Below, piece after piece: positions 20,805-45,507 of a DNA stretch of 64,000 nucleotides. The DNA is from Escherichia phage EJP2, in the sequence record OQ411014.1; one strand, given 5' to 3'. The position numbers and the translations under genes are program-made. How positions within the stretch are numbered: the first letter of the stretch is position 1; every line of letters starts with the position of its first letter. The notes beneath the pieces are model-generated. The model had not been told where the DNA came from, did not search any database, and saw nothing but the letters and a program-made list of their open reading frames with translations.

Positions 20805-21950
20805 ATGTCCGAGAAAGAAATCAACCCAAAAGCAATCGTAAAAACAAAAGCAAAAGCAAAAGCAAAAAAAGCAGCTACTGTATCTCGTACGATTGATGAA
20901 ACTATTGATTTTGTTGATGTTGAAACCAAGAATCTTCCTGCTGCTCCAGTACTGAAAGATTCTAAAGGTGGTACTCTAGCTCTGACCATCGAGAATATCA
21001 ACACTCTAGGTACTGATGTTGGTACTGGTATTGGTAAACTCTCTGATGATATTCTTCGTCAGGTGAACGTAGCGAACGACAATACCGAATTTGGTAAGTC
21101 CGTAAGTACTATTCTGACTCTAACCCGTAAGGTTGATATTGAGTCCCTGAACGGTGAGCAGACTGGTCTTCTGGCTAAGTTCCGTAACATGTTCAAAGAT
21201 GTGAAACATCGTGTATCTGACCAGTTGACTAACAGCCACGAACAGATCCAAGAAGTTGTCGCTACTCTGGAAACTGGTATCAACCGTATGCGTGGTGAAG
21301 CTGAATGGCTGAAACAAACTTACGATGCGAACATTGTATATCTGAAAGAACTCGAAGAAGTAGTACTGAACATTCAAGAAGTACGTGAAGTTGAAGATGC
21401 GAAACTCAAAGAACTTCTCGCTGATGACAGTACTGAAATGCACATTCTTGATGCACAAAAGATGATTTCTGAAGCTCTGTCCAAGCAAGAAGATAAAGTA
21501 AACCGTCTGATTCACCTGTGTCGTCTGAACGCACCACAAATCATGGCTATGCGTGGTGTGAACATCAACACAATTGATAAGTTCGAATCTCTGAAAACTG
21601 TAGTAATTCCAGCTTGGAAATCTAAGATTGCTCAAGGTCTGATTACTGATCGTCAGCGTCGTGATAACGAACTGGGTGAAATGATGGACAACGAAACTAA
21701 CCGTCTGTTCCTTGAAAGTGCTAAACAAACCAGTACTAACATGGTAACAGCAGCTAAATCCGCACAACGAGGGGTAGTAGATATCAAAACTCTACGTGAA
21801 GTACAGAAGATTACCACACAGGGTATCAAAGAAACTATCGCAGTACAGAAAGCAGGTGAAGCAGAACGTGAAGCAGCAAAACGTGAACTAGCTAACATGC
21901 GTATCGAACTTCGTGATACTCTACGCGATATCAAAAACGAATCTCGCTAA
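20805..21950 (+). CDS. coiled-coil protein, possibly TelA-like
   Basis: 381 aa, KAKAKAK repeat at N-terminus, long helical heptad-like stretches; TelA assignment is a guess from size and composition. Confidence 0.55.
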   Translation: MSEKEINPKAIVKTKAKAKAKKAATVSRTIDETIDFVDVETKNLPAAPVLKDSKGGTLALTIENINTLGTDVGTGIGKLSDDILRQVNVANDNTEFGKSVSTILTLTRKVDIESLNGEQTGLLAKFRNMFKDVKHRVSDQLTNSHEQIQEVVATLETGINRMRGEAEWLKQTYDANIVYLKELEEVVLNIQEVREVEDAKLKELLADDSTEMHILDAQKMISEALSKQEDKVNRLIHLCRLNAPQIMAMRGVNINTIDKFESLKTVVIPAWKSKIAQGLITDRQRRDNELGEMMDNETNRLFLESAKQTSTNMVTAAKSAQRGVVDIKTLREVQKITTQGIKETIAVQKAGEAEREAAKRELANMRIELRDTLRDIKNESR

Positions 21951-39817: not shown

Positions 39818-40117
39818 ATGAACAAGCACGAAGTAATTATCTTTGACCGGAAAGTATTCGTACCAACCGAGAACAGTACTGAATCGTACTATCTCATCAA
39901 TGAGATCATGTCCGCAACTAGTACTAGCTGTGAGCAGAAACCAGGTGAGTACATCTTCAGTCAGACCATTGGGTATTATCGTTACAAAGAAAAAGAACAT
40001 TTTGACATTGATTCTGAAAAAATCATTGCAGTACTGAAAGAATGTGGCTATAATGAATGTATTGAAAACGACACTACCTTACCAGTTGTCGTGTTTACAC
40101 TAAACCCAACCATCTAG
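39818..40117 (+). CDS. hypothetical protein
   Basis: 99-aa ORF. Confidence 0.55.
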   Translation: MNKHEVIIFDRKVFVPTENSTESYYLINEIMSATSTSCEQKPGEYIFSQTIGYYRYKEKEHFDIDSEKIIAVLKECGYNECIENDTTLPVVVFTLNPTI

Positions 40118-40126
40118 GATAACATT

Positions 40127-40405
40127 ATGCATTTCGAAAAATTCAACGCAAACCGTAACACACGTATTGAAATGTTGTTTGAAACTCAAGATACTATCAG
40201 TATTTGTACTAAGAGTGGTGATGTTTACCATGAATGTACTATTGAGTGGGAACAAGGCCGAACACGTTCTGTTGAGTTTGACAACTACCATTTCAAACAA
40301 GGCGACCGCAAGATCTGGCCTGAACTGGTAGAAAGCATTGCATATGAAGATGAAGATAAAGAATCTTTTATCAAAGAAAATCCAGAAAATGATGAAGATT
40401 TTTGA
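40127..40405 (+). CDS. hypothetical protein
   Basis: 92-aa ORF. Confidence 0.55.
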   Translation: MHFEKFNANRNTRIEMLFETQDTISICTKSGDVYHECTIEWEQGRTRSVEFDNYHFKQGDRKIWPELVESIAYEDEDKESFIKENPENDEDF

Positions 40406-40431
40406 GCATTTTGAAGAAAATGTGATATAAT
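40400..40431 (+). promoter_or_regulatory. extended -10 promoter (TGTGATATAAT at 40421-40431)
   Basis: exact recurring 11-mer upstream of tRNA pair. Confidence 0.55.
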
Positions 40432-40485
40432 ATAATTAAGAAAGGGACAACATGATGTTCTTTTCTTGTTAATAAATAGAATACA

Positions 40486-40576
<91 letters not shown>

Positions 40577-40689
40577 GTTTTCAAAAGGTAGCCGAAAGGC
40601 AAGTTTATAGGATTTACGGATAGTTATAAATCTGAATTGACAGCAACTCCTAACAGAGTTACTATCCGCTCCTATCTTTTCTTAATCCA

Positions 40690-40764
40690 CGGGGTATAGC
40701 TTAATGGATAAAGCAGTAACCTTCTAAGTTATTGATCTAAGTTCGATTCTTAGTATCCCGACCA
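40690..40764 (+). tRNA. tRNA-Arg (anticodon UCU)
   Basis: acceptor CGGGGTA/TATCCCG, anticodon stem GTAAC/GTTAT with loop CTTCTAA, T-arm CTAAG-TTCGATT-CTTAG, encoded CCA. Confidence 0.8.
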
Positions 40765-40779
40765 AATAAGAGACACAAC

Positions 40780-41286
40780 ATGAACTCCAGAATCTATAAA
40801 GAACTAACTAATATAATGTATGAATTTATGGATTTTGAAGTCCAGCTTGGTGTCATATGGGGTCACACCCAACCCCGTGCCACAGATTTGTTTGAAAACT
40901 GTGGCTATTTTGTTTCTGATTGGTCATGGTATGATGGTCACATTGTATCATTACTTTCTAAACAGTACCCAAATATTGAAATTGACTACGCTGCTTGTGC
41001 TGATTCTTATACATTTAGCAGTACTGAATTTCCTGGTTTGGCAATATGTATAGAAGAAGTTCCTAAGATAAGGACAGAGCCATCAGATCATATCTTTAAT
41101 AGAGTTCCAATTTATAAGGTACTTGAAAATAGGTCAGAAGAAGTACGTATTACTAATCCAACTCCAGAGTTCAGTGAGTTCGTACAAGAATTATGTCAGT
41201 GGGTGATGACATTTGACAAGTCAGAAGAACTTGATTATACTGTCAGTATATATGTACAAGAAAACATTGAGGTCACTGAACTATGA
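40780..41286 (+). CDS. hypothetical protein
   Basis: 168-aa ORF. Confidence 0.55.
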   Translation: MNSRIYKELTNIMYEFMDFEVQLGVIWGHTQPRATDLFENCGYFVSDWSWYDGHIVSLLSKQYPNIEIDYAACADSYTFSSTEFPGLAICIEEVPKIRTEPSDHIFNRVPIYKVLENRSEEVRITNPTPEFSEFVQELCQWVMTFDKSEELDYTVSIYVQENIEVTEL

Positions 41287-41720
41287 TCAATTATGAAGCA
41301 GTACTGAAATCATTTATACACTGGTTGAACGACGATATCGTATACAAAACCATTGTGCGTACTAGAAATGATGAATACATTCCTATTCAGTATTTGGATA
41401 AGAATGAAGATATCTTCTTAGATAATGAAAACCTACATTACAGTTATCAACACTGGGAATTGAACACAACTACCCAAGCTGAAAGCCTGACTTCGTACTT
41501 TGGTATTGATATAAATCGTGATGGTTCTATTGTTATATTATATAATCCATCAGGAAGTGTACGTGATAAAACTCCACCTGCACGATTTAATATTAGTACT
41601 ACAGAAGAGGAATTATTCCAACTTAGTACTATCCAAGAGGATTATGACGTAACGATGGAAGTACTGAAAGAGTTTGCTAAACTGCACGAGAAATATTTTG
41701 GGAACCTAGACGATGTGTAA
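41283..41720 (+). CDS. hypothetical protein, paralog family A (TEEELFQLST)
   Basis: family motif near C-terminus. Confidence 0.55.
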   Translation: MINYEAVLKSFIHWLNDDIVYKTIVRTRNDEYIPIQYLDKNEDIFLDNENLHYSYQHWELNTTTQAESLTSYFGIDINRDGSIVILYNPSGSVRDKTPPARFNISTTEEELFQLSTIQEDYDVTMEVLKEFAKLHEKYFGNLDDV

Positions 41721-42159
41721 TAGATATAACATAAAGATGATCCAACGTGGATTTGATGTGTTTAAAAATATCATTGCAGCTTATAGGTTCTTGATGGAAG
41801 TTGATAATCTTTCTGAACTTGACTTATGTAATGATTTCTGTATAATTGATGATGCTGGTAATCGCAATACTGCATCAGCCACTATAGACGATGATAGAAT
41901 AATTTTCTCATTTGACGCTGCTGGTGTTATAGTTGATAACAATGAACTGATTTACACGGAATGTCTATATGATGATTCTGGACATAAAATCAAGTTCATC
42001 GTGAAGAATCCGAAATTCATTGTAAATGAAGAAACATTCTTCCAAGCGAGTATGTTGTATGATTTGTCTGATGTGAAAAGTTACGAATGGTTTGTAACTA
42101 TTATGCAAACATATGATTTCGTTATGGATTTCATGAAAATGGATTTTGAACAATACTAG
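41713..42159 (+). CDS. hypothetical protein, paralog family A (NEETFFQASM); tandem duplicate of next gene
   Basis: shares FIVNEETFFQAS..DLS.V..YEW.V.IMQ with 42168..42572. Confidence 0.6.
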   Translation: MCNRYNIKMIQRGFDVFKNIIAAYRFLMEVDNLSELDLCNDFCIIDDAGNRNTASATIDDDRIIFSFDAAGVIVDNNELIYTECLYDDSGHKIKFIVKNPKFIVNEETFFQASMLYDLSDVKSYEWFVTIMQTYDFVMDFMKMDFEQY

Positions 42160-42167
42160 GACTTAAA

Positions 42168-42572
42168 ATGATTGATCTTCAGAAACTGCTAATGGTTCAG
42201 TATGGTTTTGATGTGTTGTCGAGTAGTGATTTATCGAACGTGAATTTGAAAGATTTTGAATTCATTATCAGAGATGCAAACAATAACAGTACTGATGCTT
42301 ATGCGTCAATTCATAACGAAAGCGTTGATTTCACATTCAATGATTGTTCTGTGTATGTTGATGCTACAGAAATCGAAATCGTTTACCGTGTATATAGTGA
42401 AAACTACGCGGACGATATCGAATATATCCTTTGTATTGAAAATCCAACTTATATAGTGAATGAAGAAACTTTCTTCCAGGCTAGTACACTTCAAGATTTA
42501 TCAGAAGTTCCTGGGTATGAGTGGATTGTTTCTATTATGCAAATGTACAAAAATATTATTACTAAGGTATAA
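42168..42572 (+). CDS. hypothetical protein, paralog family A (NEETFFQAST); tandem duplicate
   Basis: near-identical C-terminal 40 aa to previous gene. Confidence 0.6.
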   Translation: MIDLQKLLMVQYGFDVLSSSDLSNVNLKDFEFIIRDANNNSTDAYASIHNESVDFTFNDCSVYVDATEIEIVYRVYSENYADDIEYILCIENPTYIVNEETFFQASTLQDLSEVPGYEWIVSIMQMYKNIITKV

Positions 42573-42573
42573 T

Positions 42574-43092
42574 ATGAAAGAGCTTATTGAACGTGTAGAT
42601 TTCTTTGAACTGATTGCATTGGAATTTGATCCAGAATGTACTGATATTCTTTCAGATGTACCAATCTTCCCTATTGAAAACGATGATGGTACTTCATCGT
42701 ACTTAGAAGATTACGAAGATTATTTGCGTAGCTTCTGTCCAACATCAAACGATAAAGTGCATCTCTTTACTGAAATTATTCATGTACAATACAATACAAA
42801 TAATAAAGAAATTGTATTATGTGCAATGGATACATTCAACAGTACTGAAGCTGGTATTGCACGTGAGTATGCTAAACTATATCTCATTGATACAGGTGAG
42901 TATTGTAAACTTACCATCAAGGAAAATTCATTTATATTCAATAACAAAGAATATAAGCTAGGTACTACTGAAGAAGAGAACTTCCAGATTTCATGTACTG
43001 ACATGGGTTACTTCAATAATGTAGTAAATGAAGTAAAGAAATTTATTCTTCAAGATATTGACAAGAATGGATTACCTGAGTATAATAAATAA
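42574..43092 (+). CDS. hypothetical protein, paralog family A (TEEENFQISC)
   Basis: start moved to ATG 42574 (track ORF begins 42460). Confidence 0.55.
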   Translation: MKELIERVDFFELIALEFDPECTDILSDVPIFPIENDDGTSSYLEDYEDYLRSFCPTSNDKVHLFTEIIHVQYNTNNKEIVLCAMDTFNSTEAGIAREYAKLYLIDTGEYCKLTIKENSFIFNNKEYKLGTTEEENFQISCTDMGYFNNVVNEVKKFILQDIDKNGLPEYNK

Positions 43093-43101
43093 CAGAATTA
43101 C

Positions 43102-43191
43102 AGAAGGTTGGCAGAGCGGCTAAATGCACTCGCCTACTAAGCGAGCACTCGCTCCGGCGAGTCGAGGGTTCGAATCCCCCACCTTCTGCCA
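43102..43191 (+). tRNA. type II tRNA with apparent ACU anticodon (Ser-like, unusual)
   Basis: acceptor AGAAGGT/ACCTTCT, anticodon stem CTCGC/GCGAG with loop CTACTAA, long variable arm, T-loop GGTTCGAATCC, encoded CCA; anticodon read by hand. Confidence 0.6.
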
Positions 43192-43204
43192 TATTAGGAT
43201 TTCA

Positions 43205-43594
43205 ATGATGACAATGCATGTGTACGATGAGTATGAAGAACGTATAAAACATGAAATCCAAAGTTATTTGGATGGTGTCAATAAAAAATTGAAATACAGT
43301 TCGGGTAAACGTTTTCAATCATTCACCCTAGAATACATGGATTGTGATGATTATAAACAACGCAGAATAACTATAAAAATTGCAGTTGATCCGAAGTTTA
43401 GTTGTGTGCATTCATCTTTACAGATAGATTCCACTTTTGGTGAAGATGAAGATCAATACTGGAGTGGTTTTTCCTATATACCAGAAAGTGAAGAAAAGCA
43501 CTTTCAAGAAACGTTACTCAATAAACAGATTTTAAGCTGGGATTTATTGCAGTACTTGATTGTTTTCTTCACTAAAATGCAAAATAAAGATTGA
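43205..43594 (+). CDS. hypothetical protein, paralog family A (SEEKHFQETL)
   Basis: start moved to ATG 43205 to clear the tRNA (track ORF begins 43124). Confidence 0.55.
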   Translation: MMTMHVYDEYEERIKHEIQSYLDGVNKKLKYSSGKRFQSFTLEYMDCDDYKQRRITIKIAVDPKFSCVHSSLQIDSTFGEDEDQYWSGFSYIPESEEKHFQETLLNKQILSWDLLQYLIVFFTKMQNKD

Positions 43595-43641
43595 CTGTAC
43601 TGTAATGAACTAGTATTATATTACTTAGAGGATATAAAAAC

Positions 43642-44001
43642 ATGGCAGTTCAGGATTTTTCAAAATATGAAAAGTTTCTTAGAACATTTTTGAATTCCAA
43701 ATTAACATCTTACGATGCAGCACATAGTGAAGATAAACCAGCACGTCGCATTGTAAATGAAAATCAAGATTCATTTATTATTACTAATGATGAAATTATT
43801 TTTGAATCATTTGAAGATATAAAAAGACCTGCAAAACCAACTTTACAAGATATCGTAAATAGCTTAAATGCTAGATACATTACCTTTCAGTTGTGTAATG
43901 ATGAAGAAGATGAATTTCAGAAAAGTACAGTATATGAGAATATCTTTCCACATGAATTAAATTCTGTTATACTTGATATACTGAATAGTACTGAACAGTA
44001 G
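43642..44001 (+). CDS. hypothetical protein, family A-like (EEDEFQKST)
   Basis: degenerate family motif. Confidence 0.5.
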   Translation: MAVQDFSKYEKFLRTFLNSKLTSYDAAHSEDKPARRIVNENQDSFIITNDEIIFESFEDIKRPAKPTLQDIVNSLNARYITFQLCNDEEDEFQKSTVYENIFPHELNSVILDILNSTEQ

Positions 44002-44028
44002 ATATCAGTACTGATAAAAGGGTAACAC

Positions 44029-44238
44029 ATGAAAGCACGAGAACTTGCTAAAATTCTGATGGATAATCCCGAAGCTGAAGTTGTTTTGAATGATAATGAA
44101 TCAAATTATCAATTTTCACATATTGCCTGTACTGAAACTTTTTATAAAGATTCGTATGCTGAATCTTGGCAAAACGATGATAACAAAACTATTTCAGAAA
44201 ATGAAAAATTCAAAGTTGATGTAATAGTTTTGTACTGA
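44029..44238 (+). CDS. hypothetical protein, paralog family B
   Basis: N-terminus MKARELAKILMDNPEAEVV. Confidence 0.55.
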   Translation: MKARELAKILMDNPEAEVVLNDNESNYQFSHIACTETFYKDSYAESWQNDDNKTISENEKFKVDVIVLY

Positions 44239-44244
44239 TATAAT
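44225..44244 (+). promoter_or_regulatory. possible extended -10 promoter (TGATATAAT 44236-44244)
   Basis: TGnTATAAT overlapping upstream stop; would transcribe a 200-nt leader and the tRNA-Ser. Confidence 0.35.
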
Positions 44245-44445
44245 GAATTCCACAATCAGACGTATATGGTGTAAGTTACGTCGATGTAATCCAGAACAAG
44301 ATCTCTGGTACTCTAGGAAGTGGTGAATGTTAACCTAGACGGGTTTGATAATTGGACGATAGGCAATTATTACTTGACTAGCAGGTTTAAACTAGAGGTG
44401 ACAGTCCTTCACCAAACTGGAAAACCGGATGGACTTTTTAATTTA

Positions 44446-44540
<95 letters not shown>

Positions 44541-44607
44541 TATTGTTCCGAAAAGAATCGAGTTCTAAGATTTGTGATAACTTGTCTTAGTATAAGATTT
44601 TGTGTAA

Positions 44608-44686
<79 letters not shown>

Positions 44687-44695
44687 TCCAAATTC

Positions 44696-44769
44696 GGCCC
44701 TTTAGCTCAGTTGGTTAGAGCAGAGAACTCATAATTCTTTGGTCACTGGTTCGAGTCCAGTAGGGGCCA
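44696..44769 (+). tRNA. tRNA with CAU anticodon (Met or lysidine-type Ile2)
   Basis: acceptor GGCCCTT/AGGGGCC, D-arm TAGCTCAGTTGGTTAGAGC, anticodon loop CTCATAA, T-arm ACTGG-TTCGAGT-CCAGT; no CCA. Confidence 0.8.
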
Positions 44770-44785
44770 TTAACAAGGAAACAAA

Positions 44786-44971
44786 ATGCAACTTTTCATT
44801 CTTTCTGTATTGTATATTATGATAATGATTCCATTATCAATACGTCTAATTGCAGTAGAGGGATTTTTATCGAAACATGGACATAGATCTATGATCTTAG
44901 TTCCTATTGGTTTGATACTGTTTGGTATTGTTGCATTTATCATGGGAATTAAAGCTGCATTCTTTTCATAG
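44786..44971 (+). CDS. small membrane protein
   Basis: 61 aa, two hydrophobic helices. Confidence 0.5.
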   Translation: MQLFILSVLYIMIMIPLSIRLIAVEGFLSKHGHRSMILVPIGLILFGIVAFIMGIKAAFFS

Positions 44972-44980
44972 GAAACAACA

Positions 44981-45238
44981 ATGACATATTTCTTGATTCA
45001 AAGCGATGCGGATGATGAAGTAATCGCAAAAACTAAAATCGATATTGATAACTACCGTACAGTACTGGAAGCTATTCACTACTATGATGTGCGTTTACCA
45101 AGCAATGTCAACGAAATCAAAAACTGGATTGAACTGGGTGAATACAAAATTGAATCTTTATCCATTTCAGGTGATGAGTTAGAAGAAGATGGTTTCCTTA
45201 CAGAAACTATGTACTTGACTATTGAAAACGAGTTCTAA
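44981..45238 (+). CDS. hypothetical protein
   Basis: 85-aa ORF. Confidence 0.5.
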   Translation: MTYFLIQSDADDEVIAKTKIDIDNYRTVLEAIHYYDVRLPSNVNEIKNWIELGEYKIESLSISGDELEEDGFLTETMYLTIENEF

Positions 45239-45255
45239 CTCACGGGGAATAACGA

Positions 45256-45507
45256 ATGTTATCAGTATATGTTGTAATATCAATGTCGATTGTCATTTCA
45301 CTTATTCTCATGGTTATCATTTACGATACACTGGTAACACTTAACATCGTTGATGGTACACGTATCAGTACTGGACTATTCGGTTGGCATGTGTTAGCAT
45401 TCATGCTTTCATTTCTACCATTTATCAATCTAGTATGGTTGATGGTTATTATCGTCCATATCCGAAACATGCGTAAAGACACTGGGAAATCAAATGAAAA
45501 AGAATGA
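45256..45507 (+). CDS. small membrane protein
   Basis: 83 aa, hydrophobic. Confidence 0.5.
   Translation: MLSVYVVISMSIVISLILMVIIYDTLVTLNIVDGTRISTGLFGWHVLAFMLSFLPFINLVWLMVIIVHIRNMRKDTGKSNEKE

Follow-up and report, generated by a model that had tools for sequence, protein, structure and literature searches.

Does a phage really encode a serine tRNA whose anticodon starts with adenosine and, if so, what could such a tRNA do? The question is raised by an element at positions 43102-43191 of a 64,000-nt stretch of DNA from Escherichia phage EJP2 (sequence record OQ411014.1), which was analysed over its full length and is referred to here as the window. A preliminary description, made from the letters of the sequence, had proposed a type II tRNA with a long variable arm, an encoded CCA end and the anticodon loop CTACTAA, which places ACU at positions 34-36, and had pointed out that a wobble-position adenosine is seldom seen in tRNAs of the bacterial type. 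The latter point agrees with the literature: in textbooks and reviews, split codon boxes are described as free of wobble adenosine, a review from 2021 calls A34 'universally missing' in the Ser-Arg box and states that the genes lacking in bacteria are also lacking among phage tRNAs (PMC8007984), and a preprint from 2026 calls fifteen non-ACG ANN anticodons absent across bacteria (bioRxiv 10.64898/2026.05.15.725136). Below, we provide evidence that the tRNA and its anticodon are correctly called and that genes of this kind recur in phages. With a probability of roughly two thirds, we expect the gene of the window to yield an early-transcribed, serine-charged tRNA with an unmodified A34 that reads only AGU.

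The first step is the identity of the gene. ARAGORN predicts a 90-nt tRNA-Ser with anticodon (act) at exactly 43102-43191 on the + strand, and does not arrive at a conventional anticodon by another fold. The Rfam covariance model RF00005 matches positions 43102-43188 with 47.9 bits (gathering score 29, E = 1e-7), and in its alignment the 7-nt anticodon loop is CUACUAA, numbered C32-U33-A34-C35-U36-A37-A38. Besides the above-threshold score, the element shows the cloverleaf, the 7-bp acceptor stem, the 5-bp anticodon stem with its 7-nt loop and the GTTCGAATC-type T loop, as well as the long variable arm with a helix of its own. Both programs thus confirm the proposed architecture and the position of the ACU triplet.

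The fold is further supported by related genes, which were collected by pattern scans of IMG/VR for the D arm or the T loop plus CTACTAA; a match was taken as true when ARAGORN independently called a type II tRNA-Ser(act). These scans yielded at least 85 viral loci, in which the invariance of the loop is by construction, as the loop is part of the search pattern. Among 68 distinct ACU tRNAs, 95.2% of alignment cells are paired, and in 25 of the 26 pairs both partners have changed. Covariation scores 0.876, compared with 0.219 in shuffled alignments (none of 500 is as high) and 0.10-0.17 in slid controls. All five pairs of the anticodon stem covary, and the variable-arm helix (helix 4) is 84% paired in the family, with changes on both sides in 6/6 pairs. 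A minimum free energy (MFE) fold of the single sequence forms the anticodon and variable arms without completing the cloverleaf (z = -1.4). Incomplete cloverleaves are usual for tRNAs in such folds, and the comparative evidence establishes the cloverleaf and supersedes this uninformative result. ARAGORN, the Rfam model and family covariation all place ACU at 34-36, which rules out a conventional anticodon by an alternative fold and refutes the possibility, raised in the preliminary description, of a mis-folded call. An amber-suppressor reading of the loop was also rejected: its CUA occupies positions 32-34 of a 7-nt loop closed by the covarying 5-bp stem. No stop-codon anticodon (CUA, UCA or UUA), as expected of a suppressor or recoding tRNA, stands in the 34-36 register.

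Inspection of the sequence also argues for serine as the amino acid. The long variable arm is the main identity feature for seryl-tRNA synthetase (SerRS); in E. coli, the identity elements of this enzyme are the long variable arm, G73, G2-C71, A3-U70, C11-G24 and a 3-bp D stem. All of them are found in the window gene, which has A1-U72 instead of the commoner G1-C72. To our knowledge, the anticodon is not an identity element and is not read by SerRS. The discriminator G73 is present in 41 of the 45 CCA-encoding ACU tRNAs. Judged by its sequence and its relatives, the element is a real tRNA-Ser gene with a genomically encoded ACU anticodon.

The second step is to ask whether this anticodon has been maintained. 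ARAGORN found Ser(act) genes in the phages 121Q, Turkey3, Munch and Hallingskeid, and the 121Q gene already carries the label tRNA-Ser(act) in GenBank. These cultured relatives were identified by BLAST over the whole tRNA, so that conservation of the loop is not set by the search. The CUACUAA loop is invariant in the alignment of these four genes with that of the window. In the same five genes, the anticodon stem differs in a compensatory manner (CUCGC/GCGAG versus ACGGU/ACCGU), as do the variable arm and the T stem. The acceptor stems of the window and 121Q genes also show compensatory changes (A1-U72 versus G1-C72, and U7-A66 versus G7-C66). The preliminary description had considered a mutated paralog, which is hard to reconcile with a loop that five diverged jumbo phages have retained even though the stems around it have changed in a compensatory way.

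The window gene shares with those of the 121Q/Asteriusvirus and the Munch/7t3/Hallingskeid groups the type II body, the CUACUAA loop, an upstream sigma-70-type promoter of its own and a location in a tRNA region among small hypothetical open reading frames (ORFs). It is, however, just ~69-70% identical to either relative and looks like a mosaic: its 5' half is 91% identical to 121Q, its T arm and acceptor stem more closely resemble those of Hallingskeid, and its variable arm and a T-stem mismatch are its own. We also searched 50,697 cultured phage records with a composite megablast query in which every seed had to span the loop. An identical ACU arm was found in 25 records, namely 18 E. coli Asteriusvirus phages, six members of the Hallingskeid/Munch group and the Fusobacterium phage phiPaco; the window's own ACU anticodon arm had no match among these records. 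In phiPaco (OR492274.1, 43 kb, host in the Fusobacteriota), the arm lies at 39869-39908 and is identical to that of the metagenomic locus L135. Since phiPaco carries an ACU arm, Ser(ACU) is not confined to jumbo phages or to phages of Proteobacteria.

Metagenomic data give a rough idea of how common the class is. Among the matches listed, 63/120 in the viral CTACTAA scan were true Ser(ACU) genes, 81/120 in the equivalent viral CTGCTAA scan were true Ser(GCU) genes, and 8/120 in cellular genomes, with the same pattern as for ACU, were true Ser(ACU) genes. A scan blind to the anticodon yielded a small set of Ser tRNAs with 52 UGA, 14 GCU, 3 ACU and 1 CGA anticodons; the newly fetched loci alone contained one ACU and 13 GCU genes. 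Very roughly, the ratio of ACU to GCU lies between 1:13 and 1:2, and ACU tRNAs are a sizeable minority of the phage tRNAs of the AGY box. By a rough estimate, Ser(ACU) is, per base, some ten times rarer in cellular than in viral genomes. Ser(ACU) and Ser(GCU) seldom occur in one phage locus (6/85 and 1/81 loci); the window and Turkey3, which carry both, represent the minority condition. In Turkey3, an HNH homing endonuclease gene is located between Ser(GCU) and Ser(ACU). ARAGORN also reported 'tRNA-Pyl(cta)' in some viral contigs (L155 near 11228, and two further tRNAs), which are likely amber-suppressor tRNAs, and, in L469, an unusual type II 'tRNA-Cys(aca)' of 85 nt whose D arm resembles that of Ser tRNAs.

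Clustering at 80% identity divides the ACU tRNAs into 42 groups, and none of them is more than 82% identical to a GCU tRNA; on this sequence evidence, they are long-lived lineages. Spread over at least 85 viral contigs, they do not behave like mutated copies of a neighbour. The anticodon stem points in the same direction. In an alignment of phage Ser tRNAs (viral loci L004-L267), G30-C40 is present in 88% of ACU, 5% of GCU and 100% of UGA tRNAs, and U31-A39 in 63%, 1% and 89%, respectively. The contrast between ACU and GCU persists at the cluster level (24/32 against 4/31, Fisher p = 7e-7). The signature of Ser(GCU) is C30-G40 with C31-G39. The window copy combines G30-C40 with C31-G39, a minority form found in 22/67 of the class, and its D arm hardly differs from that of Ser(UGA) in the window. 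The UGA-like signature may have been inherited from UGA-type bodies or may tune the function of the anticodon arm. In either case, an anticodon stem that is UGA-like and not GCU-like argues against a mutated GCU paralog. A recent G34A mutant of the neighbouring Ser(GCU) gene is rejected by 68% identity, the different stem class and conservation in relatives. A host origin was rejected too, as a search of 5,426 complete E. coli genomes gave no match to the tRNA.

The eight true cellular matches among those listed rule out that Ser(ACU) is exclusive to phages. Near-identical solitary Ser(ACU) genes are found in Polynucleobacter species and in a betaproteobacterial metagenome-assembled genome (MAG) (L317:3195-3284, L325:1494-1584 and L334:1789-1878). 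Their context is apparently chromosomal, with genes for a restriction enzyme, a phasin and an AcrB efflux pump; in L317, the tRNA is directly followed by a phage-type tyrosine integrase. This gene may be a bona fide bacterial Ser(ACU) or an island attachment site. Other cellular matches (L357:960-1760, L337:3780-3993, L289 and L356) lie in dense tRNA arrays or beside Ser(GCU): L357 has seven tRNAs within ~800 bp, and in L337 Ser(ACU) adjoins a Ser(GCU) gene. From their gene content, these look like prophages or phage contigs binned into MAGs. In the other split boxes of phage tRNAs, A34 was called in 7/312 cases, several of them doubtful. Such near-absence is expected if anticodon-reading synthetases block G34A elsewhere.

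The third step is what the tRNA might read. E. coli TadA edits only UACG sites (PMC13170351). The core motif of its substrates, U33-A34-C35-G36 in an anticodon loop like that of tRNA-Arg2, is not present in the window gene, whose loop reads U-A-C-U, with U36 for G36. An orthogonal tRNA with an ACU anticodon carried no inosine in E. coli and decoded AGU at 9.4% and AGG at 0.36%, with AGC and AGA below detection (PMC11066159). By our reading of the description of its ACG variant, this tRNA shares the CUACUAA loop. In addition, overexpression of a Ser-tRNA(ACU) improved the growth of E. coli with low predicted mistranslation, unlike most split-box ANN tRNAs (bioRxiv 10.64898/2026.05.15.725136). 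By analogy with this literature, the CUACUAA loop of the window would carry no inosine and would decode AGU only. The earlier idea of a third Ser-like isoacceptor with altered decoding holds in substance, in that a conserved Ser-type tRNA with a promoter is present; the AGU-only decoding is predicted from the published E. coli data on the same loop.

Comparison with known tRNAs illustrates how the gene departs from them. It has the amino acid, the codon box and the type II architecture of Ser(GCU) of the E. coli serV type, and the loops, CUACUAA versus CUGCUAA, differ solely at position 34, with U36-A37, the context of t6A37, in common; with A34 in place of G34, AGC is predicted to go unread. 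A genomically encoded wobble adenosine is shared with tRNA-Arg(ACG), which TadA converts to ICG, and with the rarer Leu(AAG) and Thr(AGU) tRNAs of some Firmicutes and Mollicutes. However, those natural bacterial A34 tRNAs belong to four-codon boxes and for the most part have their A34 converted to inosine, whereas the window gene serves the split box Ser AGY / Arg AGR, in which inosine or superwobble would miscode, and lacks the UACG motif. The only data on the behaviour of such a tRNA come from engineered tRNAs in E. coli, an orthogonal one from M. jannaschii and a plasmid-borne Ser-tRNA(ACU), which have the same anticodon and apparently the same loop; in these experiments A34 was unmodified, AGU alone was read, and growth was unimpaired or even improved (PMC11066159; bioRxiv 10.64898/2026.05.15.725136). 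Those tRNAs were built in the laboratory on other bodies or on Ser backbones of E. coli, and the window gene is natural and evolutionarily maintained.

Demand for an AGU reader is real. In the 110 ORFs of the window (18,799 codons), the Ser codons are AGT (372), AGC (66), TCT (290), TCA (295), TCC (118) and TCG (70). AGT leads the Ser codons with 19.8 per 1000 and is at least as frequent as AGC in 104 of the 110 ORFs.

The gene also has the signals to be expressed. The -10 box of a perfect sigma-70 consensus promoter (Table 1) ends 15 nt before the mature 5' end of the tRNA, and this promoter is the sole 12/12 match in the region 40000-45500. A -10 box stands at the equivalent upstream place in 121Q, Turkey3, Munch and Hallingskeid. 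Over the whole window there are twelve perfect TTGACA-N16-18-TATAAT promoters, all on the + strand, versus 0.16 expected by chance; by their motif, these are evidently the phage's class of promoters for the host RNA polymerase, and this class is probably used early. Because no terminator-like site was seen between the tRNA and the downstream ORF, and this ORF, with its AGGA, starts 14 nt past the CCA, the two are probably transcribed together as a tRNA-mRNA co-transcript.

Taken together, we envisage the following course of events. The host RNA polymerase would transcribe the tRNA from the sigma-70 promoter, probably early and along with the downstream ORF; host RNase P and 3' nucleases would process the transcript, whose CCA is already encoded; and host SerRS would charge it with serine through elements of the variable arm, the acceptor and the D stem, not through the anticodon. 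A37 would be expected to carry t6A. As enterobacterial TadA needs UACG and the loop reads UACU, A34 would stay unmodified, and the tRNA would form three Watson-Crick pairs with AGU and read virtually no other codon. It would then supplement the host tRNA-Ser(GCU), which reads AGU only by G:U wobble, and help to supply the demand for the most used Ser codon of an AT-rich (37% GC) jumbo phage, from which the phage would presumably benefit. An ACU anticodon would be tolerable for a phage in several respects: the tRNA supplements the host set, so that leaving AGC unread would cost nothing, as the host and a second phage gene read that codon; SerRS ignores position 34; and misreading of AGA and AGG would be very low.

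A number of points weigh against this reading. Expression, aminoacylation, modification and decoding are predicted from sequence and analogy, and we infer the Enterobacterales host from 50-70% amino acid identity to jumbo phages of Erwinia, Salmonella and E. coli. Other points concern the body of the tRNA. The window gene has an A50.C64 mismatch in the T stem, where only two of the 68 distinct ACU tRNAs are unpaired, and it has the lowest Rfam score of the window's six tRNAs; owing to this mismatch, it scores below the two other Ser tRNAs, which reach 58.9 and 60.2 bits. Its 3' half has strongly diverged from 121Q, giving ~69% overall identity, versus 98% for Ser(UGA). The 8-mer GCACTCGC is present twice (43126-43133 and 43145-43152), so that the variable-arm stem ACUCGC/GCGAGU repeats the anticodon stem CUCGC/GCGAG, a repetition not seen in relatives; it could permit alternative pairing, and hence misfolding, or may record a rebuilding of the variable arm. 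Together with a recently acquired Ser(GCU)-Met module 1.3 kb downstream, such features would suit a decaying or neutral copy, that is, a weakly functional or non-functional remnant that is tolerated as the phage Ser(GCU) and the host tRNAs cover AGY. We consider this quite improbable, because all the other stems are perfectly paired, with compensatory acceptor-stem changes relative to 121Q, the loop, G73 and CCA are intact, and a perfect consensus promoter is kept directly upstream. A tRNA can be functional with a single A.C mismatch.

The fate of A34 is a further point. The published decoding data were obtained on an archaeal tRNA-Tyr body, not on a Ser tRNA (PMC11066159), and because another split-box A34 tRNA, Phe-AAA, was partly converted to I34 in E. 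coli, editing of non-UACG loops is not impossible (bioRxiv 10.64898/2026.05.15.725136). If the host TadA, or a phage enzyme encoded outside the window, changed A34 to inosine, the tRNA would be a broad AGY reader that also reads AGA weakly. The loop differs at position 36 alone from CUACGAA, the TadA substrate of tRNA-Arg(ACG) (PMC11066159), and some bacteria edit more than one A34 tRNA (PMC11066159; PMC8007984). On the other hand, the ACU-anticodon tRNA studied in E. coli had no detected inosine and no detectable AGC decoding, all E. coli TadA sites lie in UACG, and a separate phage Ser(GCU) gene is kept for AGC. Furthermore, I34 would read Arg AGA, used 90 times in the window ORFs, as Ser, which would be costly. 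A TadA-like deaminase zinc motif was found neither in the ORFs nor in the six frames of the window, a search that covered just 64 kb of a genome of ~350 kb. Pfam searches with the ten largest ORFs and ten ORFs around the tRNAs gave only replication proteins, TelA and hypothetical proteins, and no deaminase. We thus regard conversion to inosine as very improbable.

The codon data also speak against too simple a version of the AGU-only reading. The preference for AGT is unspecific: the fraction ending in T is 0.85 for AGY, against 0.84 for CGY, 0.89 for GGY, 0.80 for TGY and 0.87 for GCY. A comparison of 66 ACU with 67 GCU phage loci showed no excess of AGT over other NNT codons (p = 0.94), and GC content is slightly lower in the ACU loci (0.379 versus 0.397, p = 0.005). 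An ACU-specific excess of AGU codons is thus not borne out, either by these 133 loci or by the window, whose bias equals that of other NGY/NCY pairs, and codon-tRNA co-adaptation is not supported. In the absence of a specific excess, the proposed mechanism rests on absolute AGU demand, not on co-adaptation. Moreover, the window's own Ser(GCU) already reads AGU, which makes the ACU gene partly redundant.

These results leave room for a selective force other than codon usage. The A34 variant could serve mainly to escape host anticodon nucleases, or to replace their targets, with codon supply as a secondary effect. Phage tRNAs with altered loops have been proposed to evade tRNA-targeting defences, and in mycobacteriophages Ser(GCU) reportedly makes up for UCN-reading Ser tRNAs that have been cleaved (PMC10264068). 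The tRNA set of the window, with Thr, three Ser, Arg and Met, would suit such a role, and ACU and GCU genes for one box look redundant for codon supply alone. However, we found no report of a nuclease that targets tRNA-Ser(GCU) at or near G34, and no tRNA-repair or nuclease-inhibitor genes were recognised beside the Ser(ACU) gene. The rest of the loop (C32 U33 ... U36 A37 A38) is that of a GCU-type loop, one base being different, and the phage tRNAs that accompany Ser(ACU) are those that commonly read A/U-ending codons, a pattern expected under codon compensation. Defence evasion is plausible in general, but as the main role of this gene it appears rather unlikely, and we retain the AGU-only reader as the preferred reading.

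The surroundings of the gene are those of a jumbo phage genome. The window has a GC content of 37.4%, and 108 of its 110 ORFs lie on the + strand. Its largest ORF encodes a virion structural protein with 70% identity to that of Erwinia phage Hallingskeid, 56% to those of Salmonella phages Munch and 7t3, and ~50% to those of GAP32, CBB and E. coli 121Q-type phages. Pfam identified topoisomerase II subunits, an SF1 helicase, a clamp loader and a TelA-like protein among the other ORFs; the last of these (20805-21950) has a full-length TelA (toxic anion resistance) domain (E = 6e-37) and lies among phage replication genes. From the virion protein identities and the replication gene content, the window is therefore assigned to a new member of the ~350-kb jumbo myoviruses of Enterobacterales. 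According to ARAGORN, its tRNA genes are Thr(UGU), Ser(UGA), Ser(ACU), Arg(UCU), Ser(GCU) and Met(CAU); Ser(UGA) and Ser(GCU), both mentioned in the preliminary description, start at 40487 and 44451. Ser(UGA) is 98% identical to its 121Q counterpart, and the segment with Ser(GCU) and Met (44223-44757) has 94-98% DNA identity to E. coli Asteriusvirus and Klebsiella RaK2-type phages. Such near-identity of tRNA segments, set against ~50-70% identity in the one virion protein compared, suggests recent horizontal exchange of tRNA modules. The Met(CAU) tRNA (44696-44769) could be an elongator Met tRNA or a lysidine-modified tRNA-Ile2 that reads AUA, a codon used 203 times in the window ORFs.

Table 1. 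Coordinates of the Ser(ACU) gene, its parts and related features in the window
Feature	Position	Strand	Evidence
tRNA-Ser(ACU) gene, type II, 90 nt, discriminator G73, encoded CCA	43102..43191	+	ARAGORN, Rfam RF00005, family covariation
Acceptor stem AGAAGGU / ACCUUCU	43102-08 / 43181-87	+	read from sequence
D stem, 3 bp, GCA / UGC	within 43102-43191	+	read from sequence
Anticodon arm: stem CUCGC/GCGAG (43129-33 / 43141-45), loop 43134-40, G30-C40, C31-G39	43129..43145	+	sequence, Rfam
Anticodon A34-C35-U36, complementary to codon AGU	43136..43138	+	ARAGORN, Rfam
Variable arm, 16 nt: 6-bp stem ACUCGC/GCGAGU, 4-nt loop	43147..43162	+	sequence
T arm GAGGG-UUCGAAU-CCCCC, A50.C64 mismatch at 43165/43179	43164..43180	+	cmscan
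Discriminator G73; encoded CCA	43188; 43189-91	+	read from sequence
Perfect sigma-70 consensus promoter TTGACA-17 nt-TATAAT, inside the 3' end of the upstream ORF	43058..43086	+	motif scan
Downstream ORF, 129 amino acids, phrog_34619, function not known; AGGA ribosome-binding site 43196-99	43205..43594	+	sequence
tRNA-Ser(UGA), D arm and G30-C40 resemble Ser(ACU)	40487..40576	+	ARAGORN, alignment
tRNA-Ser(GCU), conventional AGY reader	44451..44540	+	ARAGORN, Rfam
Perfect promoters	4341, 18827, 20727, 22674, 34965, 43058, 47030, 49354, 50701, 51934, 57154, 61050	+	consensus scan

That phages encode tRNA-Ser was already known, as was the annotation of the 121Q gene; what is new is the recurrence of the ACU anticodon, contrary to statements in reviews. 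Despite the GenBank label in 121Q, we found no study or discussion of phage Ser(ACU) genes in the searchable literature. The Ser(ACU) data contradict the phage part of the 'universally missing' statement, and the Polynucleobacter genes, as far as their sequence context goes, perhaps qualify its bacterial part as well. Tentatively, and with slightly more doubt than confidence, we propose that phages systematically break the no-A34 rule of the Ser/Arg split box, which is described as universal for cells and, in reviews, for phages as well, and that Ser(ACU) is a distinct, ancient and phage-enriched class with a UGA-like stem, selected as an AGU-only decoder. In a stronger version of this proposal, A34 may carry an undescribed modification or have a role in nuclease resistance.

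If this proposal is true in either version, these genes would offer a natural system to study why cells forbid ANN anticodons. The window gene and its relatives already provide a natural test case for the explanations of this taboo, namely mistranslation by superwobble or inosine, synthetase identity, and the need for a complete decoding set. The exception falls where SerRS ignores the anticodon, where misreading is lowest and where the carrier needs no complete set. A specialist in tRNA may be surprised that the ACU anticodon is recurrent and stable in nature, and ACU calls should not be dropped as artefacts by annotation pipelines and surveys. For the window alone, the meaning is modest: the gene would be an accessory tRNA that helps to translate an AT-rich genome, probably by conventional codon supply. 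For phages in general, the Ser(ACU) class bears on the debate over whether the purpose of their tRNAs is codon supply or the evasion of defence.

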